NCBI GenBank assembly: GCA_000004695.1
Contig: CM000151.3
Location: forward strand, 224,001 to 288,000
Direction: 5' to 3'
DNA from: Dictyostelium discoideum
Taxonomy: Eukaryota
DNA length: 64,000 bases
This document shows positions 8,357 to 57,439 of this stretch, piece after piece. The position numbers and the translations under genes are program-made. Position 1 is the stretch's first letter. Every line of letters begins with the position of its first letter. The notes under the pieces are model-generated. The model was given only the letters and a program-made list of their open reading frames with translations, was not told the origin of the DNA and did no database searches.

Positions 8357-10234
<1,878 letters not shown>

Positions 10235-10320: not shown

Positions 10321-10351
<31 letters not shown>

Positions 10352-20514: not shown

Positions 20515-23500
20515 ATGAAAATAAAATTTATAAATTATTTATTATTATTTTTTATTATTTTTTTAAATTATAATGGATTTGTAAAATCAGATTGTTATCA
20601 AGAACTCGATTTGGTTTTATCTAATTCTTGTAGAAATGGCCCATCAAAATTAGTTATTCATGAAAGTATTTATTCTTTTGAAAGTATTGAATTGACTCCA
20701 TTTGTTCAACCAAAATTACTAAATTATTATTCTTGGGATTTACAAGATGGAATTAATTATTTCATAAGTTACAGATACAAGAATTGTAGTAATATAATTT
20801 CTAAACCATTTGCTTCAAAAGGAATGTATTATAAACTTTTAGCGGAACCATTATGTTTAAATACATATATTCCAGTTAGAGTTTATAATTGGGGTGCAGG
20901 TGGTATAGAATATAATTTTTATAGTGTTCCATCAACGATTTGGGTTAATTCACAAAATGGTTTATGTAGTTTCCAATCACCAATTTCTCCACAAAGTTAC
21001 ACAAAAGGTGTATTAAATGATGGTGCACTCAAATTCGTTGGACCAACATGTGGTTTTAAAAATGGTACGATTACAATTGATTTAACCAAAGGTTATTCAA
21101 ATTATCATTTATTCCTTCAATCAGATTACCTTTTTGATAATGAAATTCAACCATCTTCAGAAGGTTTTTACAATGGATTGGAATCTGAAAATTACTCCCT
21201 TTTCGTTGATTCTGAACAGTGTGCTACTGAAAGAATTGAAATTTACATGAAGGATGTTTTCGCTCCATTGGAAATTGATTTTGAGAATGTTCCAGACTTA
21301 TTCCATAATTCAACAATTTCACTATCATTATCAAGTGGTAATAATGGAATTTTAAATAACACAAATATAAATGCTTTTGTAATACAATCAGAACGTTTAC
21401 TTACAGATTGGAACCATGTCCAAACCCAAATTACTTCAAATACTTATTATGGGTACGCTTATAATAAAGACTTTTCAACGGAAGCAGGTCAGACAAAATG
21501 TGTATATTCTGAAACACTTTTATTTGATAATTATTCCCCAAATTTCAATTTCACAATTTCAAAAAGTGAAAGTTGTTTAGAAAATGTTTCAATTACATTC
21601 TATCCATTACCAAATCAAAATATTAAAGTTTATGATTATAGCTCAGAGTCTGGTATTCCATTCTCAATGAAGGATAACGTTTTATCAGTTGAAAATAATT
21701 TAAATTTATGGATTTTTGATACCAATCAAAATTATGGTATTGTTCATTCAACTGTTTTTGATATACCATCTTATAAAATTATTGAAACTTCAAATGGAAT
21801 TGGATGTTGGAAAACTTATAATATTACAATTGTAAATTATGAAAATTATAAAAATCTAAGAATTCATTTTTATAATGAAAATAGTGAATTTAATTTTTAT
21901 CCAGTAGAAGGTGTATTTATAAATGTACCTGCATTGTATTACTATGTTACTTATAATGCTGGTGATTGTGAAACTGAATCATACTTTGTAATTGATAAAC
22001 TTGATAGAAATACTCCAATGGATAATGTAGTTTTGGAATTCAACACATTGGAAATTGGTAATTGTACACATGAAACTTCATTCATGGTGACTGTGAAATC
22101 AGTATTCGGTAGCTATTCAAAAACTATGCAAACATTCTATGATAAAGAATTTACTATATTCCTTCCAAATTGTTCATGTCAGATTAATGGCATTTACGTA
22201 GCACCCCGCTTAATTGATGGTGATTCACTTATTTATGAATTATTAACAGATCCAAATTGTAATTCTACTGATACTTTAATTAGATTTACTTCTCCTTCCC
22301 AAGATTATTCAATATCATCTGTATATCAAAATGGTGTTCAATTGCAATATTATAACAATTTAAATGGTTATTATATTAGTTCAGGTGAAAATAATATTAC
22401 AGTTAATTATGAAGGTGATCAATATTGTTATAGAACTGAAACAATAACTATTCAATCAGTTTATGAAGTACCATTGGTCCAAATTACACCAGTTTCAGAT
22501 TGTAGAAATCCAAATGGAAAAATTGAAATTTCAAATTTCCAAATTTTCTATAACTTAGAGCTTGTATTTAATTCAAATAGTAAACCAATTAATCAAGGCT
22601 TTATTGAGAATCTTGCATCCGGTACATATACAATTAATTATTACAGCAATCAAACATGTATAAATTCTATCACTGTTTATGTACCATCTTCAGAAAATGT
22701 AGCAGAAATTACAACATCAGTAATTAGCAATCCAACTTGTGATAATGGTCCTTTCTCTGATGGTATGATCAGAGTAGCTCTTAAATATGAAGGTAATCAA
22801 ATTAATAATTTCACAATCCAAAATCAAGATGCAGAATTTACCTACCTTAATGATGGTGTTTACCCAATAGCAGGTGTTGGTGTAAATAGTTTAACAATTT
22901 CATATCTTTCTTGTATATGGAAAAGAGATATTACAACAGTACTCAATAAGCCAAGCTTTACTCTGGAAAAAGTTTTTAATGATACTTGTGATCTACAAAG
23001 TGTTTATAAATTAGTATCAAGTAATCCAAATATTGAAATCGATTATATTGATTCATCAAATGGCTTTTCTTACCTAAATAACTATTATCTAGTATTTCAA
23101 AATAGTGGCGATTTTGGTTATTATGTGGCTTGGAATTCACGTTGCTATGAATATTACACTCAACAAATTATAATGGATAATTATGATAGGGATAGTAATG
23201 TTAAATATATAGATTATGAAATTGTAAAACCAGATAATTGTAATTCATTAAAAATCGATTTAATCATTACAAATATGAACAAATTCATTAGTTTAACCAT
23301 TGAAAATAAACTTCCAACACCAATTAATTCGACCCATTCAATTTTCAAAAATTTACCACCATCAAAAAGTTATGACATTTTATACACATTATTAAATGGT
23401 TGTGTCGCGTATCAAACTGTTGGTATAGATGAATTCAAATCTGGTTTTACTAAAGAAACAATAGATATCATTAAAACAAGTGATATTTGTTACTCTGGTA

Positions 23501-24096
23501 AAGCTTCAATACAATTATCAAATTTGGATTTTGATAATTATTATTATTATATTAAAAATTCAAATAGTTTAATGGGAGTTACTGATTCATACGATTCAAT
23601 TCAACCACAGCAAAGTGGTAATATTAATGGTACAATTTTACTTTCAAATTATAATCCTGGTAGTTATAAAATTTATCGTGGTTGTAAATCAATGGCAAAC
23701 TGTTATTTAGAAACAAATGTTGTTATTGAAAGTGAAGATCCAATAATTGAATCAATTTCAGTTACTGATTCATATGATAAATTAAATAATGGCACTGTTG
23801 AAATTAAATTGAATTATAATTCACCATATCCAATTAATTTTAAAATCATTGGTACTCAATTATCAAATCAAAATGGTAAATTTGGAAATTTAACACCAAA
23901 AACATACGAAGTTCAAGTTACATTAACTGATAGAATGTGTCCAGTCACTTTATCAAAATCATTTACAATTAATTTAAAAACATCACCACCAACACCATCA
24001 CCACAAGATCCATCTGATGAACTTTCAACATCCTCATTTGTTCAAGTAAATCTTTTATTCTTATCAATCTTAATTTTCACTATTTTTATTTTTTAA
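20515..24096 (+). CDS. large secreted cell-surface glycoprotein, paralog 1 (1193 aa). Signal peptide, then about 8 Cys-bracketed beta-repeat modules resembling SprB/HYR-type repeats, many N-glycosylation sequons, a Ser/Thr/Pro stalk and a hydrophobic C-terminal tail (probable GPI signal).
   Basis: MKIKFINYLLLFFIIFLNYNGFVKS signal. Modules such as PVSDCRNPNGKIEISN...NLASGTYTINYYSNQTCINSITVYVP and DSYDKLNNGTVEIKLN...GNLTPKTYEVQVTLTDRMCPVTLSKSFTINLK. C-terminus TSPPTPSPQDPSDELSTSSFVQVNLLFLSILIFTIFIF-stop. Intronless ORF. Confidence 0.7.
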   Translation: MKIKFINYLLLFFIIFLNYNGFVKSDCYQELDLVLSNSCRNGPSKLVIHESIYSFESIELTPFVQPKLLNYYSWDLQDGINYFISYRYKNCSNIISKPFASKGMYYKLLAEPLCLNTYIPVRVYNWGAGGIEYNFYSVPSTIWVNSQNGLCSFQSPISPQSYTKGVLNDGALKFVGPTCGFKNGTITIDLTKGYSNYHLFLQSDYLFDNEIQPSSEGFYNGLESENYSLFVDSEQCATERIEIYMKDVFAPLEIDFENVPDLFHNSTISLSLSSGNNGILNNTNINAFVIQSERLLTDWNHVQTQITSNTYYGYAYNKDFSTEAGQTKCVYSETLLFDNYSPNFNFTISKSESCLENVSITFYPLPNQNIKVYDYSSESGIPFSMKDNVLSVENNLNLWIFDTNQNYGIVHSTVFDIPSYKIIETSNGIGCWKTYNITIVNYENYKNLRIHFYNENSEFNFYPVEGVFINVPALYYYVTYNAGDCETESYFVIDKLDRNTPMDNVVLEFNTLEIGNCTHETSFMVTVKSVFGSYSKTMQTFYDKEFTIFLPNCSCQINGIYVAPRLIDGDSLIYELLTDPNCNSTDTLIRFTSPSQDYSISSVYQNGVQLQYYNNLNGYYISSGENNITVNYEGDQYCYRTETITIQSVYEVPLVQITPVSDCRNPNGKIEISNFQIFYNLELVFNSNSKPINQGFIENLASGTYTINYYSNQTCINSITVYVPSSENVAEITTSVISNPTCDNGPFSDGMIRVALKYEGNQINNFTIQNQDAEFTYLNDGVYPIAGVGVNSLTISYLSCIWKRDITTVLNKPSFTLEKVFNDTCDLQSVYKLVSSNPNIEIDYIDSSNGFSYLNNYYLVFQNSGDFGYYVAWNSRCYEYYTQQIIMDNYDRDSNVKYIDYEIVKPDNCNSLKIDLIITNMNKFISLTIENKLPTPINSTHSIFKNLPPSKSYDILYTLLNGCVAYQTVGIDEFKSGFTKETIDIIKTSDICYSGKASIQLSNLDFDNYYYYIKNSNSLMGVTDSYDSIQPQQSGNINGTILLSNYNPGSYKIYRGCKSMANCYLETNVVIESEDPIIESISVTDSYDKLNNGTVEIKLNYNSPYPINFKIIGTQLSNQNGKFGNLTPKTYEVQVTLTDRMCPVTLSKSFTINLKTSPPTPSPQDPSDELSTSSFVQVNLLFLSILIFTIFIF

Positions 24097-24587: not shown

Positions 24588-27500
24588 AGGAAAATAAAAT
24601 TTATAAATTATTAATTATTATTTTTTATTATTTTTTTAAATAAAAATAATTTTGTAAAATCAGATTGTGATCAAGAACTCGATTTGGTATTATATAATTC
24701 TTGTGGAAATAGCCCATCAAAATTAGTTATTCATGAAAATATTTATTCTTTTGAAAGTATTGAATTGACTCCATTTGTTCAACCAAAATTACTAAATTAT
24801 TATTCTTGGGATTTACAAGATGGAATTAATTATTTCATAAGTTACAGATACAAGAATTGTAGTAATATAATTTCTAAACCATTTGCTTCAAAAGGAATGT
24901 ATTATAAACTTTTAGCGGAACCATTATGTTTAAATACATATACTCCAATTATAGTTTATAATTGGGCTGCAGATGCTTCACCCTATAGTTTTTATAGTGT
25001 TCCATCAACAATTTGGGTTTATTCACAAAATGGTAATTGTAATTTCCAATCACCAATTTCTCCACAAAGCTACACAAAAGGTGTATTAAATGATGGTGCA
25101 CTCAAATTCGTTGGACCAACATGTGGTTTTAAAAATGGTACGATTACAATTGATTTAACCAAAGGTTATTCAAATTATCATTTATTCCTTCAATCAGATT
25201 ACCTTTTTGATAATGAAATTCAACCATCTTCAGAAGGTTTTTACAATGGATTGGAATCTGAAAATTACTTCCTTTTCGTTGATTCTGAACAGTGTGCTAC
25301 TGAAAGAATTAAAATTTACTTGAAAGATGTTTTCGCTCCATTGGAAATTGATTTTGAGAATGTTCCAGATTTATTCCATAATTCAACAATTTCATTATCA
25401 TTATCAAGTGGTAATAATGGAATTTTAAATAACACAAATTCAAATGCATTTGTTGGAAATACACAGCGTTTACTTGCAGATTGGAACCATGCACAAACCC
25501 CAATTATATCAAGAACTGTTTATGGGTATACTTATAATAAAGACTTTTCAACAGAGGTTGGCCAGTTACAATGTAATTTTTTCGAAACACTTTCATTTGA
25601 TAATTATTCCCCAAATTTCAATTTCACAATTTCAAAAAGTGAAAGTTGTTTAGAAAATGTTTCAATTACATTCTATCCATTACCAAATCAAAATATTAAA
25701 GTTTATGATTATAGCTCAGAGTCTGGTATTCCATTCTCAATGAAGGATAACGTTTTATCAGTTAATAATAATTTAAATTTATGGATTTTTGATACCAATC
25801 AAGGGTATGGTATTGTTCATTCAACTGTTTTTGATATACCATCTTACAAAATTATCGAAACTTCAAATGGAATTGGATGTTGGAAAACTTATAATATTAC
25901 TATTGTAAATTATGAAAATTATAAAAATCTAAGAATTCATTCATATAATGAAAATAGTGAATTTAATTTTTATCCAGTAGAAGGTGTATTTATAAATGTA
26001 CCTGCATTGTATTACTATGTTACTTATAATGCTGGTGATTGTGAAACTGAATCATTCTTTGTAATCGATAAACTTGATATAAATACTCCAATGGATGGTG
26101 TGACTGTTGAATACACTACATTGAAAGTTGGTAATTGTACACATGAAACTTCATTCATGGTGACTGTGAAATCAGTATTCGGTAGCTATTCAAAAACTAT
26201 GCAAACATTCTATGATAAAGAATTTACTATATTCCTTCCAAATTGTTCATGTCAGATTAATGGCATTTACGAAGCACCCGGCTTAATTGATGGTGATTCA
26301 CTTATTTATGAACTTTTAACAGATCCAAATTGTAATTCCACTGGCACTTTAATTAGATTTACTTCTCCTTCCCAAGATTATTCAATATCATCTGTATATC
26401 AAAATGGTGTTCAATTGCAATATTATAACAATTTAAATGGTTATTATATTAGTTCAGGTGAAAATAATATTACAGTTAATTATGAAGGTGATCAATATTG
26501 TTATAGAACTGAAACAATAACTATTCAATCAGTTTATGAAGTACCATTGGTCCAAATTACACCAGTTTCAGATTGTAGAAATCCAAATGGAAAAATTGAA
26601 ATTTCAAATTTCCAAATTTTCTATAACTTAGAGCTTGTATTTAATTCAAATAGTAAACCAATTAATCAAGGCTTTATTGAGAATCTTGCATCCGGTACAT
26701 ATACAATTAATTATTACAGCAATCAAACATGTATAAATTCTATCACTGTTTATGTACCATCTTCAGAAAATGTAGCAGAAATTACAACATCAGTAATTAG
26801 CAATCCAACTTGTGATAATGGTCCTTTCTCTGATGGTATGATCAGAGTAGCTCTTAAATATGAAGGTAATCAAATTAATAATTTCACAATCCAAAATCAA
26901 GATGCAGAATTTACCTACCTTAATGATGGTGTTTACCCAATAGCAGGTGTTGGTGTAAATAGTTTAACAATTTCATATCTTTCTTGTATATGGAAAAGAG
27001 ATATTACAACAGTACTCAATAAGCCAAGCTTTACTCTTGAAAAAGTTTTTAATGATACTTGTTCACTACCAAATGTTTATAAATTAGTATCAAGTAATCC
27101 AAATATTGAAATCGATTATATTGATTCACCAAATAACTTTTTTTATCAAAATAACTATTATCTAGTATTTCAAAATGTTGGTAATTCTAGTTATCAAGTG
27201 GGCTGGAATTCACGTTGTGAAGAACATTACTATCAACAAATAATAATGGATAATTATGATAAAAATAGTAATGTTAAATATATAGATTATGAAATTGTAA
27301 AATCAGATAATTGTAACTCATTAAAAATTGATTTAATCATTACAAATATGAACAAATTCGTTAGTTTAAATATTGAAAATAAACTTCCAACACCAATTAA
27401 TTCGACCCATTCAATTTTCAAAAATTTACCACCATCAAAAAGTTATGACATTTTATACACATTACTAAATGGTTGTGCAGGGTATCAAACTGTAGGTGAA

Positions 27501-28181
27501 GATGAACTCAAATCTGGTTTTACTAAAGAAACAATGGATATCATAAAAATAAATGATCTTTGTTACTCTGGTAAAGCTTCAATACAATTATCAAATTTGG
27601 ATTTTGATAATTATTATTATTATATTAAAAATTCAAATAGTTTAATGGGAGTTTCTGATTCATTTGACCCAATTCAACCACAACAAATTAGTAGTAATGG
27701 TACTATTTTACTTTCAAATTATAATCCTGGTAGTTATAAAATTTATCGTGGTTGTAAGTCAATGGCAAACTGTTATTTAGAAACAAATGTTGTTATTGAA
27801 AGTGAAGATCCAATAATTGAATCAATTTCAGTTACTGATTCATATGATAAATTAAATAATGGTACTGTTGAAATTAAATTAAATTATAATTCATCAAATC
27901 CAATTAATTTTAAAATCATTGGTACTCAATTATCAAATCAAAATGGTAAATTTGGAAATTTAACACCAAAAACATACGAAGTTCAAGTTACATTAACTGA
28001 TAGAATGTGTCCAATCACTCTATCAAAATCATTTACAATTAATTTAAAAACATCACCAACACCATCACCAACCCCATCACCACAAGATCCATCTGATGAA
28101 CTTTCAACATCATCATTTGTTCAAGTTAATCTATTATTCTTATCAATCTTAATTTTCACTATTTTTATTTTTTTAATTTAA
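24588..28181 (+). pseudogene. surface glycoprotein paralog 2 (about 90% nt identity to paralog 1). The ancestral start codon is mutated ATG->AGG (24588-24590) and there is an in-frame TAA at 24612-24614. The remaining ~1165 codons are open.
   Basis: Direct alignment of AATAAAAATGAAAATAAAATTTATAAATTATTTATTATT (copy 1) with AATAAAAAGGAAAATAAAATTTATAAATTATTAATTATT (copy 2). The track 'M' at 24684 is TTG. The first in-frame ATG is about 70 codons downstream (SKGMYYK), past the signal peptide. Confidence 0.55.
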
Positions 28182-28336
28182 AATAATTAAAAATTCCAAA
28201 GTTTTTTCAATATTTATATATATACTTTTCCCTTTAATGTTTATTTTTAAAAAATTGTTTTAGTGGAGGAAATGGGAAAGGATTTTAAAAAAGTATATTT
28301 TTTTTTATAATTGACTGGAAGATGATAAAGTCTTTT

Positions 28337-28761: not shown

Positions 28762-31700
28762 ATGAAATTTATAAAATATTTATTAATTTTATTTTTAATA
28801 TTAAAAATTAATTATTTTGTAGAATCAGGAGTAGATTGTCAAAAAAATACAGAGTATTTCGTTGAAAATTCATGTGGCAAAAATCCATCAAAATTAAACA
28901 TCAACACTGATATTTACTATTTTGAAAGTATTGGAATAACACCATATTCCCCACCTGTTTATAATGAATCTACAACTAATTACTTTTGGTATTTGAAGGA
29001 TGGTATTGAATATACATTTAGTTATAGATACAAAGGTTGTCAAAATATTAAATCACATTCAATTGTTTCACAAGGAATGTATTACCAACTTTTATCACAA
29101 CCATTGTGTCCAAATACCTATTTCAATTATACAATTTATAATTCAGGAGAGTTTGGTGGAAATACAAATTATTACTCTACCCCACAAAATATTATAAGTT
29201 CAAATTATAATGGTAGTTGTACTATTAATATTTTAATTACACCACTTAGTAATTCCAAAGGTGCATTCCAAAGCAGTGCTGCTAAATACACCTATCCAAC
29301 TTGTGGTTTTAATAATGGTACGATTTCAGTTGATTTAACAAAAGGTTATTCAAATTGTCACTTATTCAGCCAATTTGACACGAGTTTTCTATATGAAATT
29401 GAACCATCATCGCCATGTTTTTACAGTGGGTTGGAGTCAAATTATTATTACCTTTTCGTTGATTCTAAAGAATGTGCTACTGAAAGATTATCAATTCAAT
29501 TATTCAATGTTTTCACTCCATTGGAAATTACTTTTGAAAATGTTCCAGATTATAATCAAAATTCAATAGTATCATTATCATTATCAAGTGGTGACAATGG
29601 AATTTTAAATAAAACTAATTCATTTGCAACTGTGGGTGGCACTGGACCTGATCCATTAAGTACTTGGAGCCATAAAGAAACTAAAATTACTTCAACCACA
29701 CAATTTGGTTACTTTTATAATAAAGACTTTTCAACAGATCCATTAAAAGTTATATGTTCTTTTAATGATGGTTTTGAACCGCAAAAATTTAATCCAAATT
29801 TTAATTTCACAGTTACAAAAAGTGATACTTGTTTAGAAAATGTAACTATTACATTTTATCCATTACCAAGTCAAACATTTGTTGTTCATGATTATATTTT
29901 AGGAAATATATTACCATTGACAAATAATGTTCTATCGGTTCAATATAATAAATTTTTACATATTTCAGAGATTTCAAGTAATTCAGAAAGATATTATTCA
30001 ACAGCTTTTTATGCTCCTATTTATAGAGTTGTTGAAACTTCAAATGGAATTGGTTGTTGGAAAACCTATAATATTACAATTGGTGAATATCAAATTTATT
30101 CAAATCTTACAATGAAAGTATATGATGGAGATGAATATGAATATATTTTTTATCCAATTGAAGGAGTTTTCGTTAATGTACCTGCAAATTATTTTTATAT
30201 CCATTATAAAGTTAAAGATTGTGAAGTTGAATCAATAATTATGATTGATAAATATGAAGAAATTACTCCAATGGATGATGTAAAAATGGATATCAGTATA
30301 TATGAACTTGGTAATTGTACACATGAAACTTCAATTTTAGTAAATATCGATACAGTTTTTGGTAACTTTTCTAAAGTTTATTCATCATTTTCAAATGGTT
30401 ATTTCTCTTTTTACCTTCCAAATTGTTCCTGTAATATTGGTTTCTACTATTCTATTCCACCATTAATCGATAGTGAAACATTTTCTTATGGTTTTATCAG
30501 TGATCTAGATTGTAATTCCACTGGTACTGTTATTCAATTATTAGGTTCAAATGGTAATACTATTCAAGAAGTTTATTCAAATGGTATTAAATTAATAGTA
30601 AATAATGACGTTGATACTGATTTTGCATATAATATTGGGCCTGGTGAAAATAATGTTACAATTAAATATTCAAATACAAAAGGAACTTGTTACAAATCTC
30701 AAATGATTAACATACAATCACCTTATGAAGTACCATTAGTTGAAGTCACACCAGTTATAGATTGTGATAGTTCTGATGGTAAAATTTCAATTTCAAATTA
30801 TATGAACTTCTATTCATTGGATATTATTATTGATTCATCCACTATACCAATTAATTCAGGTTTAGTTAGTAATCTTCCAACTGGTACTTACACAATTGTT
30901 TATGGAAACAGTGGATCTTGTGCAAATTCTATCGATGTTTATGTACCATCTTCAGAACAGTATGTAGAAATTACAACATCTGTAATTTCCCATCCAACTT
31001 GTGGTGAACAATCATTGAATGGTGATGGTAAAGTCAATGTAACTTTAAAGGTTTTAGGAATTAAAAAAAATACATTCTATATTCAAAATCAAAATCAAAT
31101 ATCATCTCTAACATTCTCAGATGGTGGTGTTTATATTGCTGCTGCTCCAGGTTTAAATACTTTATCAATATCCTATGGTGGTTGTATTTGGAATAGAGAT
31201 GTTAATACAACAATTTCCAAACCAACATTCTCATTTGAAAAGATTTACAATGACACTTGTTTATCATCAGTATATTATAAATTAATAAATAATAATACAA
31301 ATATAGCAATTAATTCCATCACTTCACCTTATACCTTATATAGTTACCAAAATGAATACTACACTCAAATGGCCACAAATTTAATCTATCCATACACTGT
31401 CACATGGAATACCTATTGCACAGAAACATTTTACCAAGAATTTACTTTTGACACTCCTTTTAATTATTATTCAAATTATATCCAATATGAAATTGTAAAA
31501 GCTGATAATTGTAATTCATTCAAAATTGATATCATCATTAAAAATATGAATACTTTTCAAAAGGTAACCCTTTCAAGTAAATATCCAACACCAATTAATT
31601 CGACTCATGCAATTTTTAAAAATTTACCACCATCTATTTCTTATGATATTTCATTCACATTATTTGATGGTTGCTCTGGTACTGAAATGGTTGGTTATCA

Positions 31701-32367
31701 ACAACTTTCAAATGGTAATACTAAAGAGACAATCGATATCATCAAGGTGAACGACATTTGTAACTCTGGTAAAGGTTCTATCCAATTATCAAATATGGAT
31801 ACCTCCAATCATTATTACTATGTTAAAACATTTTCAGATTATTACGTTTACACAAGTTACCCAATTCAACCAACTACTAATGATAATGGTACAATTATTA
31901 GTCTACTTTCAAATTTACCAGTTGGTAGTTACAATATAACTAGAAATTGTAAATCAATAACAAACTGTTATATAGAAACAAAGGTTGTTATTGAAAATAA
32001 AGACCCAATAATTGAATCAATTTCAGTTACTGATTCATATGATAAATTAAATAATGGTACTGCTGAAATTAAATTAAACTATAACTCAACATATCCAATT
32101 AATTTCAAAATTATTGGTACTCAATTATCCAATCAAAATGGTATATTTTCAAATTTACCACCAAAAACATATGAAGTTCAAGTTACATTAACTGATAGAA
32201 TGTGTCCAATCACAATTTCACAATCATTTACAATCAATTTTAAAACATCACCAACACCACCACCACTACCACAAGATCCATCTGATGAACTTTCAACATC
32301 TTCATTTATTCAATTAAATATTTTATCATTATTATTAATTTCAATTTTCACTATTTTTATTTTATAG
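28762..32367 (+). CDS. surface glycoprotein paralog 3 (1201 aa). A diverged member with the same architecture and the same C-terminal stalk and hydrophobic tail.
   Basis: MKFIKYLLILFLILKINYFVESG signal. Collinear motifs: TCGFNNGTISVDLTKGYSNCHLF, VIDCDSSDGKISISN...NLPTGTYTIVYGNSGSCANSIDVYVP, DSYDKLNNGTAEIKLN. C-terminus TSPTPPPLPQDPSDELSTSSFIQLNILSLLLISIFTIFIL-stop. Confidence 0.7.
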   Translation: MKFIKYLLILFLILKINYFVESGVDCQKNTEYFVENSCGKNPSKLNINTDIYYFESIGITPYSPPVYNESTTNYFWYLKDGIEYTFSYRYKGCQNIKSHSIVSQGMYYQLLSQPLCPNTYFNYTIYNSGEFGGNTNYYSTPQNIISSNYNGSCTINILITPLSNSKGAFQSSAAKYTYPTCGFNNGTISVDLTKGYSNCHLFSQFDTSFLYEIEPSSPCFYSGLESNYYYLFVDSKECATERLSIQLFNVFTPLEITFENVPDYNQNSIVSLSLSSGDNGILNKTNSFATVGGTGPDPLSTWSHKETKITSTTQFGYFYNKDFSTDPLKVICSFNDGFEPQKFNPNFNFTVTKSDTCLENVTITFYPLPSQTFVVHDYILGNILPLTNNVLSVQYNKFLHISEISSNSERYYSTAFYAPIYRVVETSNGIGCWKTYNITIGEYQIYSNLTMKVYDGDEYEYIFYPIEGVFVNVPANYFYIHYKVKDCEVESIIMIDKYEEITPMDDVKMDISIYELGNCTHETSILVNIDTVFGNFSKVYSSFSNGYFSFYLPNCSCNIGFYYSIPPLIDSETFSYGFISDLDCNSTGTVIQLLGSNGNTIQEVYSNGIKLIVNNDVDTDFAYNIGPGENNVTIKYSNTKGTCYKSQMINIQSPYEVPLVEVTPVIDCDSSDGKISISNYMNFYSLDIIIDSSTIPINSGLVSNLPTGTYTIVYGNSGSCANSIDVYVPSSEQYVEITTSVISHPTCGEQSLNGDGKVNVTLKVLGIKKNTFYIQNQNQISSLTFSDGGVYIAAAPGLNTLSISYGGCIWNRDVNTTISKPTFSFEKIYNDTCLSSVYYKLINNNTNIAINSITSPYTLYSYQNEYYTQMATNLIYPYTVTWNTYCTETFYQEFTFDTPFNYYSNYIQYEIVKADNCNSFKIDIIIKNMNTFQKVTLSSKYPTPINSTHAIFKNLPPSISYDISFTLFDGCSGTEMVGYQQLSNGNTKETIDIIKVNDICNSGKGSIQLSNMDTSNHYYYVKTFSDYYVYTSYPIQPTTNDNGTIISLLSNLPVGSYNITRNCKSITNCYIETKVVIENKDPIIESISVTDSYDKLNNGTAEIKLNYNSTYPINFKIIGTQLSNQNGIFSNLPPKTYEVQVTLTDRMCPITISQSFTINFKTSPTPPPLPQDPSDELSTSSFIQLNILSLLLISIFTIFIL

Positions 32368-32635: not shown

Positions 32636-33863
32636 ATGTTTAAACAAATAATTATAGTTATTAGTTTAGTTCTTTTTGCTTTTAATCAATTGGATATTGT
32701 TTCAGCTTGTAGATGTGATTCAGATTGTGAAGATTGTAATGAATGTACTTTGGATACTTGCTCTCGTGGATGTTGTTCAAATGTTGAAATAGATTGTGAC
32801 GATGGTAATCAATGTACTGTAGATTCATGTTCAAAAGAGACTGGTTGTGCCCATAATGATATTAATTGTGACGATGGTGATGCTTGTACTACTGATTCAT
32901 GTTCCAAATTATCTGGTTGTTGTAACTTGCCAATCTCTTGTGATGATAATGATGCTTGCACAACTGATTCTTGTTTAAATTCTACCGGTTGTTCAAATTT
33001 ACTAATCTCATGTGATGATGGAAATGCTTGTACTACTGATAGTTGCTCAAAGAAAACAGGTTGTTGTAATTTATCAATCTCTTGTGATGATGGTAATGCT
33101 TGTACAACTGATGGTTGTTCAAAGGAAACTGGTTGTACTAATTCCAATATCGATTGTGACGATGATGATTCTTGTACTACTGATTCTTGTTCAAAGAAAA
33201 CTGGTTGTTCAAATTTACCAATGTCTTGTGATGATAATGATGCTTGTACTACCGATTCATGCTTAAATTCTACTGGTTGTTCAAATTTACCAATCTCTTG
33301 TGATGATAATGATACTTGTACTACTGGTTCTTGTTCAAAATCTGCTGGTTGTTGTAATTCACCAATTTCATGTGATGATGGTAATGCTTGTACTACTGAT
33401 GGTTGTTCTAAAGAGACTGGTTGTTGTAATACACCAATTACTTGTGATGATGGTGATTTGTGTACCAATGTCTTGTGATGATAATGATGCTTGTACTACC
33501 GATTCATGCTTAAATTCTACTGGTTGTTCAAATTTACCAATCTCTTGTGATGATAATGATACTTGTACTACTGATTCTTGTTCAAAATCTGCTGGTTGTT
33601 GTAATTCACCAATTTCATGTGATGATGGTAATGCTTGTACTACTGATGGTTGTTCTAAAGAGACTGGTTGTTGTAATACACCAATTACTTGTGATGATGG
33701 TGATTTGTGTACCAATGACTCTTGCTCTGAAAAAAGTGGTTGTTGTCATACTCCAGTTTCATGTGACGATGGTGAAGATTGCACAACTGACACTTGTTCA
33801 CCAAAATTAGGATGTATTCATACCTATATCACTATTCCTGAACCTCAACCTATTGATTGTTAA
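32636..33863 (+). CDS. secreted cysteine-rich protein made of ~27-aa CDDGNACTTDSC..TGC repeats (Dictyostelium CTDC-type Cys repeat). The reading frame is interrupted by a 247-bp tandem duplication: frame 1 stops at 33478 and the +1 frame continues to 33863.
   Basis: Signal peptide MFKQIIIVISLVLFAFNQLDIVSA. At least 11 repeats of [IL]SCDD[GN][DN]ACTTDSC[SL][KN].TGC. ORF 32636-33478 and ORF 33300-33863 are in different frames. Removing one 247-bp unit restores a single ORF that ends ...CTTDTCSPKLGCIHTYITIPEPQPIDC. Confidence 0.6.
33221..33714. repeat. direct tandem duplication, 2 x 247 bp (units 33221-33467 and 33468-33714), about 99.6% identical
   Basis: Unit 2 repeats unit 1 base for base except for one difference (TGG vs TGA in ACTACTGGTTCT / ACTACTGATTCT). 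247 = 3n+1, hence the frameshift. Confidence 0.85.
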
Positions 33864-34016: not shown

Positions 34017-35749
34017 ATGTCAACAAGTAAAAAAATTAAAACAGATAATAATAAAATATTACAAGATGTGATTGATTATGAAATTTTAAAATCTTTAATA
34101 AATTATTTATTAATCAGCAAAAATAATAAAACAAATTATAATAATACTATTAATCAATATAAAATTAATAAATTTTATTTAAATAGAAATGAAATATTAA
34201 ATTATATATTAGTTTCAAAAAAGTGGTATAATTTTATATCATCAACAATATCAAATAATATTATTGATAATAAATCATTTGAACATTGGTTAAAAATTAA
34301 TTATAATAAAAATAAATCATTTATTGAAAATTACAATAACCAAAATCAATATGATAAAAATAATTTAATTTTTAATGACAAAGAAGATAATCAAAATAAA
34401 ATTAGTTTTAATAAAGAGTTTTCAATTATAAAAATCAAAGAATCAATAATCAATGATTATTTTAAATTCAATTTATTTTTAGATGATATTACAATTGATG
34501 ATTTTAAAGAAATTAAAAATAAATTTGAAAATAATCAATTACTTTATAATAGAATTGTAGTTAATGTTAAAACTGGTTATGAAGGGAATCAAGACGATAG
34601 TATTTTATTCGAAATACATGAATATATATCAAATGAAAATTCAGAAAACATATCAAATTTATTTAAAATATTAGAATTAAATTATAATTATTTGGAAATT
34701 GAGGGCTATAATCCAAGCTCTGAAGAAGATGATGATGAAAGTAATAAGAAATGTACTGAATTATATTTAAATAATTTATCAATTGCTGGTGTTGATAGAG
34801 ATGTAGGTGAAGATGAAGAAACAGTAAAGATATTCAAAATTTTCAAAGGTAAAAATTTAATTTATGATGGATCTGATGTTGCTTGTGATTGTCCAACACA
34901 TGTCGATTATTCAGCATTATTTGATCCAAATAATTCAGGTCAACAAGTTGAATCAATTAAAGTACAAAATAGATTAGATGGTGGTGAATATGTCGAAGCA
35001 CGTCATTTAATCAAAGTTAATCAATTTGAAAATTTACATTCAATTACAATACCAATTAATTCATTTCAAATATTATCAAACCTATCTGAAGAAATGGGAT
35101 TTAATAGTTTCTATAGTAATAGTACAGATTCAGGTAATTCAGAAAATATGAAATCCGAATTAAACCAAATGATTAATTCATTCATTACAAGTAAATCTTT
35201 AAAGAATTTAAATATATCATCCATAGAAAAAGAAGATTCAATTTATAGTGATGATTATGATGATGATGAAACTTTTGCTAATAATATTAATGAAACTATA
35301 GAATCATTTTCAAATTCATTTATACCATTATTTTCAGAATCAAATACATCAATTGAAAGAATTGAATTTGATTGTTGTGGTTTATTAAATATTAATACAT
35401 TTTCAAATTTATTAAAAAACAAATCAATTAAATATTTATATTTATATGATAATAGTGATTTCATTGTTTACTCTTCAAAACAAACTGGTCGTGGTGGTAA
35501 TGATTTACATAAAGAACCTATTTCAATTAATCAATATTTATTTGATAATATATTTTCATCGCCATTAACATCAATTAGACATTATAAAATTAATATCAAA
35601 GAATCAAATCAATTCAAATTAATATTTAATTTAATATTAAATAATATTTTTAAATTACAATTATATTCATTAATATTTGAATTAAATGAAAATGAGTTAG
35701 TTGGTGAATTTGTTAAAGAATTTAAAAATTTAATAAATAATATTTCAAT

Positions 35750-35786
<37 letters not shown>

Positions 35787-35915
35787 AAAGAATCAAATAT
35801 AAATTTAAAAGAAATTAAAATTAAAATCGGAGATGATGAATATATTCCTGAATTAAATAATATTAATAATCCATATTTCACAACAGTAATAAAGAAATTA
35901 CCAAAAAAAAATTAA
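34017..35915 (+). CDS. member A (632 aa) of a tandemly arrayed Dictyostelium-specific family. N-terminal F-box-like motif (DYEILKSLINYLL ... NEILNYILVSKKWYNFIS), acidic linker and a conserved C-terminal domain.
   Basis: Intact intronless ORF. Family-conserved blocks: ETVKIFKIFKGKNLIY, YSALFDPNNSGQQVESIKV, VEARHLIKVNQFENLHSITIPINSFQILSNLSEEMGF, IERIEFDCCGLLNINTFSNLL, PLTSIRHYKI, NPYFTTVIKKLPK. Confidence 0.7.
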
Positions 35916-36279
35916 ATAAATAATATTGGTTAATGAAAATTAATTATTATAAATAGTTTTAATAAAATTTTATTATTATTATTGGTTTTTATTGGTATTA
36001 TTATTTTTTTTTAATTTTTTAATTATTAACCATTTAGATATTAATAAAAAAAAAAAAAAATTTAAGCCCCAATTTAATTGAAAAAAAAAAATATATTTTT
36101 AAAAATATCTTTTTTTTTAGATATTAATAAAAAAAAAAAATAAAAAAATAAAAAAAAAAAAGTTTTTTTGGATAATTTTGAGAGAAAAAAAAAAAGTGAA
36201 GCTTTCATTTTTTTTTTTTTTTTTTTTTTGCTTAAAATTCATCATTCTAAAACACACTTTATTATTTAAACAAATAATA

Positions 36280-38361
36280 ATGCCAAAAAATAAAAAAATA
36301 AAAACAGATAAAAATAATAAAATATTTCAAGATGTTATTGAATTTGAAATTTTAAGATCAATAATCAATTATTTATTAATCAGCAAAAAAAAAAAAAAAA
36401 ATAATAATTATAATACTAGTAGTCAATATAAAATTAATAAATTTTATTTAAATAGAAATGAAATATTAAATTATATATTAGTTTCAAAAAAGTGGTATAA
36501 TTTTATATCATTAACAATATCAAATAATATTATTAATAATAAATTATTTGAATATTGGTTAAAAATTAATTATTACAATAAATCATTTATTGAAAATTAT
36601 AATAATCAAAATAAATATGATAAATATAATTTATTTTTCAATAACATAGAAGATTGCAAAAATAAAATTAGTTTTAATAAAGAGTTTTCAATTATAAAAA
36701 TCAAAGAATCAATAATCAATGATTATTTTAAATTCAATTTATTTTCAAATCATATTACAATTGATGATTTTAAAGAAATTAAAAACAAATTTGAAAATAA
36801 TCAATTACTTTATAATAGAATTGTAGTTAATCTTGAAACTGATTATGGTAGCGATGATGATGATATTTTATTTACAATACATGAATATATATCAAATGAA
36901 AATTGGGAAATCATATCAAATTTATTTAAAATAATAGAATTAAATTTTCATTTTTGGTTAGGTGAAGGTTATCAACCAAAATCTGAGGAGGAGGAGGAGG
37001 AGGAAGAGGAGGAGGAGGAGGAAGATCATCATGATACTGATGAATGTTGTAGTCCAAAATCTGAGGAAGACGATCATGATGAACATTGTAGTCCAAAATC
37101 CAAAGAGGATGATGATCATGACGAAGGTTGTCACCCAAAATCTGAAGAGGAGGAGGAGGAGGAGGAGGATGATCTTGATGATGAAGGTAATAAGAAATGT
37201 ACTGAATTATATTTAAATAGTTTAACAGTTGTTGGGTATGATCAAGATGTAGTTGAAGATGAAGAAACAGTAAAGATATTCAAAATTTTCAAAGGTAAAA
37301 ATTTATTTTATGATGGATCTGGTGATTCAATTGATACGTATACACATGTCAATTATTCAGCATTATTTGATCCAGATAATTCAGGTCAACAAGTTGAATC
37401 AATTAATGTACAAATTGAAACTATTAATGAAGAATTCGTTGAAGCACGTCATTTAATCAAAGTTAATCAATTTGAAAATTTACATTCAATTACAATACCA
37501 ATTAGCTCTTTTCAAATATTATCAAGTTTAGCGAAAGAAATGGGATTTACTAGTTTCTATTATAATAGTAAATCAGAATTTGGTAATTCAAAAAATATGA
37601 AATCAGAATTAAATCAAATGATCAATTCATTCGTTACATGTAAATCTTTAAAGAATTTAAAAATAACATCGGTAAATTTAACAGATTATCATATCAACTA
37701 TGAAGGTTATTATGATGGAAATGGAGATCTTGAAATTTTTGCTAATAAAATAAATGAAACTATAGAATCATATTCAAATTCATTCCAACCATTATTTTCA
37801 GAATTAAATACATCAATTGAAAGAATTGAATTAGATTGTATGCGTTTATTAAATATCAATACATTTTCAAATTTATTAAATAATAAATCAATTAAATATT
37901 TATATTTGTATGGTGATAGTGATTTCATTGTTTACTCTTCAAAATCAAGTGGTTATGGTGGTGGTAGTGAATTACATGAAGAATCTATTTCAATTAATCA
38001 ATTTTTATTTGAAAATATATTTACATCACCATTAACATCAATTAGACATTATAAAATTTGTTTCAAATTATCAAATCAATTAAGATTAATATTTAATTTA
38101 ATTTTAAATAATATTTTCAAATTACAATTATATTCATTAATATTTGAATTCGATGAAAACAAATTAGTTGGCGAATTTGTTAAAGAATTTAAAAATTTAA
38201 TAAATAGTATTCCAACTCAAATACAACAAAAATCAAATAACATAAATTTAAAAGAAATTAAAATTAAAATTGAAGATGATGAATATATTCCTGAATTAAA
38301 TAATATTAATAATCCGTATTTCACAACAATAATAAAGAAAATAGAAAAAAAATATGATTAA
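36280..38361 (+). CDS. family member B (693 aa from ATG 36280), with an expanded acidic insert containing (GAG)n Glu runs and three CSPKSEEDDHDE-type repeats
   Basis: MPKNKKIKTDKNNKIFQDVIEFEILRSIINYLL... The same conserved blocks as member A. The track start 36178 is TTG. Confidence 0.7.
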   Translation: MPKNKKIKTDKNNKIFQDVIEFEILRSIINYLLISKKKKKNNNYNTSSQYKINKFYLNRNEILNYILVSKKWYNFISLTISNNIINNKLFEYWLKINYYNKSFIENYNNQNKYDKYNLFFNNIEDCKNKISFNKEFSIIKIKESIINDYFKFNLFSNHITIDDFKEIKNKFENNQLLYNRIVVNLETDYGSDDDDILFTIHEYISNENWEIISNLFKIIELNFHFWLGEGYQPKSEEEEEEEEEEEEEDHHDTDECCSPKSEEDDHDEHCSPKSKEDDDHDEGCHPKSEEEEEEEEDDLDDEGNKKCTELYLNSLTVVGYDQDVVEDEETVKIFKIFKGKNLFYDGSGDSIDTYTHVNYSALFDPDNSGQQVESINVQIETINEEFVEARHLIKVNQFENLHSITIPISSFQILSSLAKEMGFTSFYYNSKSEFGNSKNMKSELNQMINSFVTCKSLKNLKITSVNLTDYHINYEGYYDGNGDLEIFANKINETIESYSNSFQPLFSELNTSIERIELDCMRLLNINTFSNLLNNKSIKYLYLYGDSDFIVYSSKSSGYGGGSELHEESISINQFLFENIFTSPLTSIRHYKICFKLSNQLRLIFNLILNNIFKLQLYSLIFEFDENKLVGEFVKEFKNLINSIPTQIQQKSNNINLKEIKIKIEDDEYIPELNNINNPYFTTIIKKIEKKYD

Positions 38362-42224: not shown

Positions 42225-45200
42225 ATGATTGAAGGAAATTTTGAAAAAAACAATGATAACCAAGTTGCAATAATTGGTCTTGGGCTAAGATTACCAGGTA
42301 ACTCGGGATCTCCTTTAGAGTTTTGGAAAAACTTGCTTGGTGGTTTTGATGGAATTGTTGATTCTAATGAAAGGTAAAAAAAAAAAAAAAAATTTAAAAA
42401 ATAAATAAATAAAAAATTAGAATTATAAAAAAAAAAATAAAAATAAAAAAAAAAATAAAAATAAAAATAAAAAAAAGTGATGGCGACTCACCTCTAACAC
42501 ACCATATTTTTTTTTATTTTAATTTTTTTCTTTTTTTTCATTTTCATCACCGTTGTCTTCATTTTTTTTTTTTTTTTTTAAATTATTATTTTTATTTATT
42601 TAGATGGAGCGACACATTCCATAGTATGGGAGAAATCTCAAATAAGAATGCAGGATTAATTGACTTGGAAGAGAATTGGCATTCTTTTGAGCCATTGTTT
42701 TTTGGGATCAATCCAACCGATGCTAAACAAATTGATCCACAAATTAAATTAATGTTAAAGTTAACATGGGAAGCATTTGAAGATGCATCAATTGATCCTT
42801 TAAAACTCAGAGGAACAAATACTTCTGTTTTTGTTGGTGCCGCAAATACTGATTATTCTTTTATTAATTTCGAATAAAATGAAGCGCCAATCAATGTTTT
42901 TAATGGTACTCTCAGCGCATTTGCAAATAGAATATCATATTGTTTTGATTTACGTGGTACTTCATTAACAATTGACACTGCATGTTCATCATCATTAAAT
43001 GCAGTTCATTTAGGATATGAATCAATTGTTAATGGTAAATCAAATTACTCTGTAGTAGCTGGTTGTAATATATTATTAAGTAATTATTATTATAATATTA
43101 GTAGCACACACATATATATAAAATAGTTTTCATATTTCTAATATTTTATTTTTATTATTATTATTATTCTAAAAAAAGATCCATATATTACTAGATCATT
43201 TCATTCAATTAATATTACAGGTAAATCTGGTAGATGTAATTCATTTGATGAATCTGCTGATGGTTTTGTACGTTCAGAAGGTGTTGTTGTATTAATTTTA
43301 AAAAGATTATCACTTGCAATTCAAGATAACGATCAAATTTATTGTGTAATGAAAGGAAGTAGTTCAAATGTAGATGGTACTTTTAAGAAAACAAACTTTT
43401 TTGCACCTTCAAAAAGTGCACAATCAACTAATATCAAAAATGCATTTTTATCATCTAATGGTGCAGTGAAATATCAAGATATTGATTTCTTTGAATTACA
43501 TAGTACAGGTACACAAGTAGGTGATCCAATCGAAGTTGAAGCTGTTGCTGATATTTTTAAAAATGTTAAACAAGAACCATTATTAATTGGATCAGTTAAA
43601 TCAAATATTGGTCATCTTGAACCTGCATCAGGTGTAGCATCATTAGCAAAAGTTTGTTTAATGTTTAAACATCGTCAATTTGTAAAGAATATCCATTTCA
43701 ATAACCCAAATCCAAATATTAAATTCAAAGAATGGAATGTTAAAGTATGCACAGAAACAACAGCATTCCCAGATAGACAAGTATCAATGGCAATCAATAG
43801 TTTTGGTATAACTGGTTCAAATGCATGTGTTTTATTGTCTGAATATATTAAACCTTCAGAATTAAAAAATCAAACATCCATGAAATTAAATGAAAAATCA
43901 AAATTATTAATACCAATATCAACCAACTCAAAGAAGTCACTCGAACAATTCAAATCAAAACTACTTGAAGAAATTGATACATACTCTGAAAGCTTAACTT
44001 TTGAAGAGTTTGCAATGTTCCAAGTTTATTCAAAAACAACCAAATTATCACAAAGATCAGTTTTAATTGGTAATGATTGGAATGATTTAAAAATTAATAT
44101 AAATGAAATTATTTCAACAAAAAATAATAAATCTGGTAATATTATCAAATCAAATGATATTAATCCACCATTAGTATTTTCATTTTGTGGTCAAGGTCCT
44201 CAATATTCAAAAATGGGTTTAGATTTATATGAAAATGAACCAATATTTAAACAATATATGGATTTATTAGATTCAATACTATTTAAATATTATGGATATT
44301 CAATCATTCAAAAACTAAGATCAATTAATGATGATCCAATTCTAATTAATGAACCAATATTAGCTCAACCATCTATATTTATGATTCAAATATCATTATA
44401 TAAATTATATTTGCATTGGGGAATCACACCATCAATAATAGTTGGCCATAGTTTAGGAGAAGTAGCCAGTGCATTTTGTTCAGGTATGATTGATTTAGAA
44501 ACAGCATGCTTCGTGATATATAAAAGAGCAATCATTCAAAATAAAACCAATGGATCTGGAAGACTTTTAGCAATTGGTTTAAATCTTGAAGAATTCTATA
44601 ATCAATTTTCAAAGGAATATCCAGAAATTGAAATTTCATGTTTTAACTCACCATCATCAATCGTTGTATGTGGTAATGAACATGATATATTAAATATTTC
44701 AAAATCATTAAAAGAGAAACAAATATTCAACTCTTTATTAGGTACACCATCAGCATTTCATTCATCAAAACAAGATATAATCAAAGATGAAATTATAGAA
44801 TCAACCAATCATATCCGATCAAGACCACCTTCTATAACAACATTTTCAACAGTCACATCAAATAAATTCGATAAAAATACACCTTATAATTCAAATTATA
44901 TATTTGACAATTTAAGAAAGCCAGTATTATTTCAACAAACCATTGAAAACATATTCAAACATATTGAATCAAATGATTTAGGTAATTCAGTAATATTTTT
45001 AGAATTGTCACCTCATCCAACTTTAAACCATTATGTTAAAGAAATGATTCCAAAGAATTCAAATTACTTTTTAAACAAAGATTCAATAAGTGTATTATCA
45101 TCAATAAATAAGAAAAAAGAAGATATCAACGAAATTCAATCAACAATTTCACAACTTTATTGTTTTGGTTACAATGTCGATTTTAGTGCCCAATTTAAAT

Positions 45201-48200
45201 CGGAAATAACATCAAATTCATTCAAGAAATGCTCATACATAATACCACATTATCAATGGGATGAATCATTATTTTGGAAAGAAGGTATTTCATCAATAAA
45301 TAATAGAAAGAATGGAGTATCAATAAATCAACTTGGTAATAAAAATGAATCATCACCACATATATCATATACATCATATATCGATATTAAAGAAGAACCA
45401 TTTAGATTCTTAAAAGATCATCAATTTCGTGGTAAATCAATTTTCCCAGGAGTTGGTTATTTGGATATTATTTTAAAACTTTTCCCAAATCAAGATTTAA
45501 CCATACCACTTTTAGAATTTAAATCACAATTTATATTATCTGAAGGTGTAAAAAAAACTCTTACAACCAATCTCTACAAAAGTGCAAAGAATGAATATAG
45601 AGCAACATTTAATTTTAAAGATCAAACAAGTGGTAAGTGGGTTCAATCTGCAAATAGTAGAATTTTAATGAAAAGTTTAGATGTAACAGTTAAAAAAGTT
45701 GATATTCAATCAATACGTGATCAATGTAATTGGTCAACTTTGAAAAGAGATCAATTATATAACTCAATTAAAAACTATTCAAACATTTCAATATTAGAAT
45801 CATTTCAAAGAATTGAAGAAGCTTCATATGGTGATAATAGATGCCTGTGTAAAATTTCATTGGATCCAACTTCAAGCTATGATAATGAATCATTTTTAAA
45901 TATTTGCATTATTGATACATGTATACATCCATGTATTTTCTTTGATAACCCAGCTTCGTCTGTTTTTGAAAGAATTGAACATTTAAAAATTTATTCTTCA
46001 AGTGTTCCATTAACTGCAGAAGATAGAGTGAAGCAACAATACGTTTACTGTTATGTTGAACTTATTAAACAATTTAGTGATTTTATGTATTTAAAAACAA
46101 CTTGTTTCTTAAAAGATGGTACTGTTCTATTACATTCTCCATTGGTAACAATTGCATCTACACTATCAACAAAAAATGAAATTGATATTGAATGTCCAAA
46201 CAATCAATTATTTTCACAATGTCTTCAACCAAAAGATTCAATTTTACAATCACCATTAATATTGAAAGAATATTTTAATCAACAACTTCAACTTCAACAA
46301 TCAAATATCATTTCAATATCTACTCTATCATCATATCTTTTTTCCACATTAAAGAAAATATTAAATAACCTCACCATTGATGAATTTCAAAATGATTCAC
46401 TTGAACAGTTGATTGAAAAATATTCATATATCTTGGAAGAAGTTCAAGAAGTTGGTACTATCAGATCCAATTTAATCCTCTTAACAATCAACTTTTTATT
46501 AACACATCACAAACATATTGATCAAAACCAAGTTTCAAACTTTCTCTTGAATAACATTCCAAACGAATTATTAGTTGTTGATAATATTGTTTCAAATAAA
46601 GGTATTTCACATATTGGTATTTATCAACATCAATTAATTTTAGATATAATTTCAAAATCAATTATTCCAATCGTAAATGAAAAAATAGTTTTTAGAATTT
46701 TAGAAATTGGATGTGGTGTTGGTGAATTAACTAAACTAATCAATGATAAATTAGAATCAATTTTAAATGATAATCCATCATATAACATTGATATAGAATT
46801 TGTATTTTCAGATTATACCGATTCAAAAGTATTATTAATTAAAGAAAGATTGTTCAGTTCAAAAAAGAGTTGTTTCTTTAAAATTATTGATTTAAACAAA
46901 CAATTACAAGAACAATCATTTTCACCATCTTATTATGATTTAATTATTCTATCAAATACAACAAATCAAATTAAAGATATCAACACATCAATTTCATTTG
47001 TAAATGAAATTTTAACTCCAAACGGTCATTTATTAATTTTAGATACAAATTTCATTCAAACATCAATAGATGAAGATTATTATTTAGAAAACTACAAACA
47101 ATGGTTATCATTTAATTATTTAAATTCTGGTAGTGGTGCAATGAAACTAAATCAATGGAATCAATTATTAATAAATGATTTGAAATTTAATAATTTCATA
47201 TGTTCAACAGGTGAAATTGAACCATATTTGATTCAAGTTCAAAAATCAAATTTATCAAATTCAATTAATTCAGTTAGTAAAGAGCATACATCAGAATATG
47301 ATCAAATTATAATTTTTGGTACTTGTGATGAAATTAATATTGGATCTTCTTTCTATGGCTTGGTTCCAATAGCAATAAATTCAATTGATAAGTTTAAAGA
47401 ACATGTCAAATTACAACAATTAACTGATAAATCATTAATATTATTTATTGAATCATTAAATCTATTAACAGTTGATAATTTTAATCAAGTCTCAATGAAC
47501 TATATAGAAATCAATCAACATTTATTAAAAAATGAAATTTCAGGTTGTAAACATATTTTAATTTCAAGAAATGTAAACTTTGAAACTTCAAACTTATTTG
47601 GATCATCATTAATTGGTTCATTTAGATACTTTTGTGAATTCAATCAATTAAATATATATTCATTTGAATTTGAAGGTAATAATATCCTTAGTGGTGATAA
47701 ATTATTTAATATTATTCAAGAATTATCAAATTCAAGCAAACATTCACAAAATGAATTTTCAATCAGAAGTGATGGTAAAATTTATTATGAAAGAATTAAA
47801 TTAGAATCAAATTTAAAATTAAAATATAAATCAAAATCATATATTGAAAATAAAAATGAATTAGTTTCAAGATTAAAACCAGATTTAACATTTGCATTAG
47901 AAGCGGTATTACCATTGAATCCAAATTTTGTTGAAGTTAAAGTAATGGCAAGTGGTGTTAATTTTAAAGATTTCTTAGTTTATCGTCAATTAATTAATAT
48001 GGCAAATTCAAATGAAAATGGTGATCCTTCAAAACCACAATTTGGATATGAACTAAGTGGAATCGTTACCAAAGTCGGTAAGAATGTGACCAAATTCAAA
48101 GTTGGTGATCATGTAATGGGAGGTGCTTTTCATACATTTTCATCAAGTGTTCATGTAGATCAAGAAAGAATCGAATTAAAACCATCAAACATTTCTTGGT

Positions 48201-51342: not shown

Positions 51343-51391
<49 letters not shown>

Positions 51392-55157: not shown

Positions 55158-55447
55158 TTTGTTTTTTTTTTTATTTTTATTTTTTTTTTTCTAAGTATGT
55201 TGTTATAAAAGTGTAGTGTTCATATTTATTTTAATTTCTCTTTTTTTTTTGGTGTACACCAAAAAAATAATATAAAGAAATAATAATGTTAACAAAAAAT
55301 AAAAATAAATATTTCAAGATATTATTTTTTTGAAATTTTAAAATCCATGTGTTTTTATTTTTTTTTGTTTTTTTATTTTTTTTTTTTTTAAGTTTTAAAT
55401 ATTTTCATTTTTTTAACTCATTAGTCAGCTCACTCTTACAAATAATT

Positions 55448-57436: not shown

Positions 57437-57439
57437 AAA

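Follow-up and report, generated by a model that had tools for sequence, protein, structure and literature searches.

The CTDC gene at the dduB locus

The 64-kb stretch of DNA considered here (the window) is part of chromosome 2 of Dictyostelium discoideum AX4 and harbors, next to the gene dduB, a gene built of cysteine-rich Dicty_CTDC repeats (the CTDC gene) whose reading frame is interrupted by a head-to-tail duplication of 247 bp. The window has a G+C content of 21.8%. The open reading frame (ORF) at 28762-32367 matches XP_645715.1 (dduB, DDB_G0271234) of AX4 residue for residue, and the start of the CTDC gene lies 269 bp downstream of dduB. Judging from the descending order of the neighboring gene ids, the CTDC gene is probably DDB_G0271232. 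Exact look-ups in the protein collection retrieved no entry for the 280-amino acid (aa) ORF, for either reconstituted protein, for the stranded ORF, for the proteins of two other isolates (L002 and L003, see below), or for four candidate 399-aa models. A literature search on the neighboring gene ids and the assembly accessions found nothing relevant.

When one copy of the duplicated segment is removed, the reconstituted protein scores 295 bits against the Pfam family Dicty_CTDC (PF00526, gathering cutoff 27) and contains 11 repeats, preceded by a degenerate Cys-rich N-terminal segment. The family assignment thus combines a repeated match above the gathering cutoff with a 24-residue period and conserved cysteines. 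Both Tandem Repeats Finder (TRF, period 72) and a decomposition of the array into units give a repeat of 24 aa, or 72 bp, in which the Cys, Asp, Thr, and Gly columns are invariant in an alignment with 33 homologues. The N-terminus resembles a signal peptide and the protein is presumably secreted, which agrees with the first-pass annotation of a secreted CTDC-type Cys-repeat gene.

The Dicty_CTDC repeat is found in the matrix proteins EcmA, EcmB, PsiA, and others, and D. discoideum encodes about 11-14 such proteins (PMC4931340, Table 4; PMC9117722). Like the matrix proteins, the protein described here combines the 24-residue cysteine repeat with a predicted N-terminal signal peptide; unlike them, it is a small protein, of 326 aa in its reconstituted form, made up of repeats only. 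A protein search with the reconstituted sequence returned only prokaryotic metagenome CTDC proteins, at no more than 59% identity, and no Dictyostelium entry. A search with the 77-aa N-terminus and a sequence search of the PDB with the CTDC protein gave no match. The "Dictyostelium" CTDC repeat is abundant in these prokaryotic metagenome proteins (Polarisedimenticolia, Myxococcota, Methanothrix, and others), with identities reaching 59%, and the proteins that carry it often include MYXO-CTERM or carboxypeptidase-regulatory-like domains.

Architecture of the duplication

The two 247-bp units, listed with the other features of the gene in Table 1, differ at a single base (33327 G, 33574 A), as the first-pass annotation had reported. 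Identity at period 247 extends over 33216-33717 (502 bp), and therefore an 8-bp overlap, TACCAATG, is found at both ends of the duplication and again at the joint. TRF describes the region as 2.0 copies of a 247-bp period with 99% matches. The best identity over 247 bp is obtained at a lag of 247 (99.6%), the next best at the in-register lag of 288 (83.4%); the duplication is far above the background of the array and does not arise from its periodicity. Within the window this is the sole near-perfect long tandem repeat. The junction k-mer of the duplication allele is GGTGATTTGTGTACCAATGTCTTGTGATGATAATGATGC.

The length of the unit places the duplication both off the repeat register and out of frame, being 3 × 72 + 31 and 3n + 1. 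The initial description of the segment as three 81-bp protein repeats plus 4 bp does not hold, given the 72-bp unit. Deletion of either copy restores a single open frame, as had been anticipated, although of 326 aa and 11 Pfam repeats rather than about 330 aa and 13 repeats.

Table 1. Positions in the window of the features of the CTDC gene and its duplication.
Feature	Position	Strand	Basis
Predicted N-terminal signal peptide MFKQIIIVISLVLFAFNQLDIVSA	32636..32707	+	Read from the sequence; cleavage presumed after VSA; conserved in all five alleles
Truncated ORF, 280 aa: signal peptide, degenerate Cys-rich head, 9 full Dicty_CTDC repeats, partial repeat ending ...CDDGDLCTNVL	32636..33478	+	PF00526, E 2e-73, 9 stretches
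Array of 72-bp (24-aa) Dicty_CTDC units, broken by the out-of-register duplication	32795..33836	+	TRF period 72; unit decomposition
Microhomology TACCAATG, left copy, codons ..L P M..	33216..33223	+	8-mer also at the orthologous site in L002, L003, L005, L006
Duplication copy 1 (247 bp), read in the original frame	33221..33467	+	TRF; the boundary between units can be set anywhere in the 8-bp microhomology
Derived G, Asp to Gly at the conserved CTTDSC motif; sole difference between the copies	33327	+	Orthologous unit in L002/L003 has A
Junction copy of TACCAATG; novel joint ...GATTTGTGTACCAATGTCTTGTGATG...	33463..33470	+	Present in L001; absent from L002, L003, L005, L006
Duplication copy 2 (247 bp), ancestral A at 33574, after the premature stop	33468..33714	+	TRF; comparison with L002, L003
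Premature stop TGA made by the frameshift	33476..33478	+	ORF translation
Stranded 3' part in the next frame: five CTDC repeats, C-terminal tail IPEPQPIDC, natural stop	33479..33863	+	PF00526, E 9e-43, 5 stretches on 33468-33860
Microhomology TACCAATG, right copy, codons ..C T N D..	33710..33717	+	247 bp downstream of the left 8-mer in L002, L005, L006

Reading frame and predicted product

The ORF reading confirms that the frame is lost at the junction (...CTNVL and then the TGA at 33476-33478) and that the next frame reaches the natural C-terminus at 33863: the ORF at 33300-33863 carries the repeats through ...PIDC to that stop. The predicted 280-aa product keeps the signal peptide and 9 of the 11 repeats and lacks the last two repeats together with the tail IPEPQPIDC. 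Its function may be lost or altered, and the transcript may be subject to nonsense-mediated decay. The first-pass suggestion that the gene has just been inactivated is overstated, given the parts that the truncated ORF retains.

An AlphaFold2 model of the 280-aa ORF (32636-33475) has a mean predicted local distance difference test (pLDDT) score of 85.5, with values above 90 across the repeats (residues ~50-270) and low values in the last ten residues. In the model each 24-aa CTDC unit forms a β-hairpin within a straight, extended stack, so the protein is predicted to be a rod of stacked β-hairpins. The best Foldseek match of the model (E 1e-6, probability 1.0) is to the Gal/GalNAc lectin of Entamoeba histolytica, namely the Cys-rich region of its heavy chain (PDB 9gjf and related entries). 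Both would be extended, disulfide-rich β-hairpin rods, on the CTDC side as modeled by AlphaFold2, and both are amoebozoan; however, template modeling (TM) scores of ~0.17 and identities of 17-20% make this a local resemblance, for which neither homology nor shared function is claimed.

The repeat array also yields long spurious ORFs in other frames, namely a 219-aa antisense ORF at 32809-33468 (-) and the ORF at 33300-33863 (+), because of its periodic codon composition. The frame adjoining the coding frame reads as an extremely hydrophobic sequence, rich in L, V, M, and I.

Alleles in other isolates

Orthologous loci were fetched from public assemblies with dduB as the anchor. Among them, a CTDC gene stands beside dduB only in genomes of the discoideum clade. 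The dduB-like genes retrieved from D. citrinum and D. firmibasis had no CTDC gene at a distance of 10 kb or less, and hence no outgroup allele was obtained. Contig look-ups with three other ORFs of the window gave nothing, probably because these ORFs belong to multi-exon genes.

Four isolates carry intact alleles in which the junction is absent. These encode 614 aa in 23 units (L002) and 494 aa in 18 units (L003) in D. discoideum, and 518 aa in 19 units in each of two D. cf. discoideum isolates (L005, L006). Once one copy is taken out, the AX4 allele is colinear with the 3' end of L002 in an alignment. L002, L005, and L006 each have one colinear copy of the duplicated segment, while L003 lacks one unit of it. 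The spacing between the two TACCAATG octamers is exactly 247 bp both in L002 (1445/1692) and in the pair L005 and L006 (1157/1404). It follows that the single copy is ancestral and that the predisposing microhomology pair is old. This comparison of isolates, proposed in the first-pass annotation as a check, identifies the duplication as derived. The A found at the mismatch site in both L002 and L003 likewise indicates that the G at 33327 is the derived base. Neither the junction nor a conserved 35-mer was matched in scans of metagenomes.

The number of in-frame units varies among isolates (11 in AX4 with one copy removed, then 18, 19, 19, and 23), and all of these alleles have open frames. Units 1-4 of AX4 correspond one by one to the first four units of the other alleles and units 7-11 to their last five, and the middle of the array consists of a variable number of 4-unit (288-bp) blocks, a higher-order repeat with 90-95% identity. 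The AX4 array is the shortest. Internal similarity in the other isolates peaks at a lag of 288 and its multiples and stays at or below 36% at every lag that is not a multiple of 3. The ordinary evolution of the array is therefore in-register and driven by homology. In the discoideum clade the CTDC gene is a coding minisatellite. The ratio of nonsynonymous to synonymous substitution rates (dN/dS) is 0.18 between two intact alleles, which indicates purifying selection where the gene is intact; comparisons with AX4 give 0.31-0.34, from small counts.

Coding minisatellites with in-frame variation in repeat number are familiar from cell-surface and secreted genes, such as the FLO/adhesin genes of yeast. 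The CTDC gene is similar in that the number of its 24-aa units varies in frame (11-23), mostly through the 288-bp repeat. It differs in that its array also contains the 247-bp event, the sole out-of-register and frame-breaking change found in it.

The duplication allele itself is present in a second assembly, GCA_054883475.1, where it lies on a 3.6-Mb contig (L001). AX2 and AX3/AX4 were derived separately from NC4, so that the duplication was already present in NC4 if L001 comes from AX2-214. GCA_054883475.1 is probably AX2-214: the accession series JBTAPE to JBTAPI and the species labels agree with the de novo assemblies made from Nanopore and Illumina reads in PMC12745789 (Holland et al., PRJNA1300491), of which only that of AX2-214 is not described as diverged from AX4.

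Origin of the duplication

Taken together, these features make it very likely that the lesion is a real, derived, microhomology-mediated tandem duplication of 247 bp that truncates the CTDC gene in the laboratory lineage. It comprises two head-to-tail copies, a single-copy ancestral state, and one short identity at each end and at the joint. The flanks of the TACCAATG octamers are dissimilar, leaving an identity at the breakpoints of only 8 bp with no extended homology, and the octamers occupy different codon phases and different positions of the 72-bp unit. In the proposed sequence of events, the 247-bp segment between two pre-existing copies of TACCAATG would have been duplicated head to tail, by replication slippage, template switching, or an equivalent microhomology-primed repair. 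Translation would then leave the frame at the junction, because 247 is 3n + 1, and stop three codons later. The translated copy would later have gained one substitution, changing Asp to Gly at a conserved position.

Microhomology-mediated tandem duplications have been described in Schizosaccharomyces pombe, where those in ssp1 have 5-8-bp microhomologies and 55-92-bp units and cause frameshifts, within a catalogue covering microhomologies of 4-25 nt and spacings of 3-500 nt (PMC8639346). Such duplications have been proposed to be universal (bioRxiv 10.64898/2026.02.28.708716). The CTDC event has the same form: a segment bounded by an 8-bp identity becomes two head-to-tail copies with one microhomology at the joint, the 247-bp spacing falls within the catalogued range, and the outcome is a frameshift with a premature stop. 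It differs from the ssp1 duplications in its longer unit, in its presence in two assemblies rather than as a subclonal variant, and in that the copies are already one base apart. Furthermore, it arose within a pre-existing 72-bp array, out of register.

Unequal crossing-over, the explanation originally put forward, would ascribe the duplication to homologous recombination between misaligned repeat units. The number of units differs between isolates (11-23) and the 288-bp repeat has 90-95% identity, which indicates that homology-driven misalignment does operate in this gene. However, such an exchange is expected to produce a spacing that is a multiple of 72 and keeps the frame, whereas the observed 247 is 31 modulo 72 and 1 modulo 3. 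The breakpoints share only 8 bp and have unrelated flanks, although the single-copy allele offered much longer exact matches in register, of up to 25 bp. Classical unequal crossing-over is thus an unlikely origin, and the spacing, the 8-bp identity, and the lack of flanking homology form the signature of a microhomology-mediated event.

Several considerations nevertheless weigh against the microhomology-mediated account. The single-copy allele contains 138 maximal exact direct repeats of at least 8 bp at spacings of 3-500 bp, and 136 of these spacings are divisible by 3, so that a random microhomology event would rarely break the frame; the duplication used one of the only two pairs that do. 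With n = 1, this may be no more than chance, or it may hint at selection. The route could have been slippage, break repair, or an unequal exchange between sister chromatids on 8 bp. The single substitution may date from error-prone repair synthesis during the event, in which case the age argument given below is gone. Finally, if L001 is AX2-214, it confirms that the duplication is real and is not informative about its frequency in nature.

The use of such a rare frame-breaking pair would also fit a selected or reversible loss-of-function switch, that is, an allele favored in the NC4 lineage or one that returns at a high rate to the intact gene when the 247-bp direct repeat collapses. The counterparts in S. 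pombe revert at about 1e-4 (PMC8639346), and the AX4 array is, as noted, the shortest. If a switch were involved, the frameshift would turn off the C-terminal part of a secreted protein of the matrix type, and a collapse could undo this. This appears very unlikely: there is a single event, the copies have gained a substitution without reverting or homogenizing, and two assemblies show the same state. The lesion is an ordinary, lineage-specific one in a gene polymorphic for repeat number, not a new kind of element.

Presence in an independent assembly

A further alternative, raised in the first-pass annotation, is that the reference wrongly expanded a repetitive gene and that the true genome has one 247-bp unit. 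The gene is indeed an array of 72-bp repeats, and the AX4 reference contains patches that are at odds with the newer assembly. Nonetheless, L001 matches the window without a single difference across the 1,231 bp that begin at the start codon and end slightly beyond the natural stop, and it shares both the junction and the G/A mismatch; over 15.6 kb the identity is 99.77%. A second locus of GCA_054883475.1 (L004) has 99.68% identity to the window over 22 kb. Relative to the window, this assembly has consistently shorter homopolymers, a few isolated substitutions, and clustered patches of substitutions. The homopolymer and substitution differences imply that it is an independent long-read assembly and not a copy of the reference, and its different homopolymer calls accompany a base-for-base match in the gene. 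In addition, the two copies can be told apart by one base, and a collapse or expansion of 72-bp units would not give a junction that is out of register. An assembly artefact is accordingly highly improbable.

Clusters of substitutions at 28174-28207 and 51390-51447, almost all to A in GCA_054883475.1, lie beside indels. They look like low-quality patches in one assembly rather than natural polymorphism.

Lastly, there is next to no chance that a full protein is still made through splicing of the extra 247 bp (or another 3n + 1 segment) from the mRNA or through recoding. A gene called on L001 at 9875-11102 does have a listed length of 399 aa within a range of 1,228 bp, which amounts to 28 skipped bp. 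However, the frame is not restored by any GT-AG segment of 28 bp, the gene contains neither a GTAAGT nor a GTATGT donor, including among the 57 frame-restoring GT...AG segments of 40-499 bp, all of the frame-restoring segments have an A+T content of at most 66%, the skipped segment is coding-like repeat sequence, and the four best-guess 399-aa models are absent from the protein collection. Dictyostelium introns are far more A+T-rich than this, and the gene contains no segment that combines a Dictyostelium-type donor, a very high A+T content, and restoration of the frame. The 399-aa annotation seems to be an artificial bridging of the frameshift.

Age of the event

The mutation rate of D. discoideum is 2.47e-11 substitutions per site per generation (PMC7466956). 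At this rate, the probability of at least one substitution in 2 × 247 bp over 1e5 generations is about 0.0012, and the one difference in 247 sites gives a point estimate for the age of ~8e7 generations (95% interval 2e6 to 4.6e8). Most likely, then, the microhomology-mediated duplication predates laboratory culture, because it carries one derived substitution and the same allele occurs in a second assembly of the same lineage. Local gene conversion was considered as a source of the G at 33327 and rejected, the 9-mer around it being unique in the window, which leaves no donor within it. There are two possibilities: the duplication is far older than laboratory culture, or the substitution arose in the course of the duplication. 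The description of the event as "very recent" was therefore overstated, one derived substitution being only ~0.1% likely within 1e5 generations; it is apt only when the event is set against the divergence from the other isolates (dS about 0.1).

Implications

The standard laboratory lineage carries a truncated allele of the CTDC gene, and knock-out or expression work on it in AX4 or AX2 would not mirror the wild type. The locus offers a clean natural example, in an amoebozoan, of a microhomology-mediated tandem duplication whose ancestral pair is kept in sister isolates. The polymorphism in repeat number (11-23 units) could make the gene a strain marker. The current understanding of the mechanisms involved is unchanged.

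Other features of the window

dduB belongs to a set of three tandem paralogues of ~1,170-1,200 aa, at 20515-24096 (DDB_G0271238), 24684-28181 (an intervening copy), and 28762-32367 (dduB). These share ~53% protein identity and have no Pfam domain; D. citrinum, D. firmibasis, and D. dimigraforme have arrays of a similar kind. A second family comprises ORFs of 630-730 aa with ~83-89% DNA identity, at 34017-35915, 36178-38361, 55349-57436, 58899-60827, and 61190-63112; the copy at 34017 contains a poly-Q tract, and the two members scanned had no Pfam match. The long ORF at 43349-48586 is part of a Dictyostelium polyketide synthase gene, with the C-terminal part of the ketosynthase, acyltransferase, dehydratase, methyltransferase, and the N-terminal part of the enoyl reductase domains. 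The window further contains a 484-bp repeat at 57019-57896 (1.8 copies, 87% identity) and a (TTA)59 microsatellite at 9300-9477.

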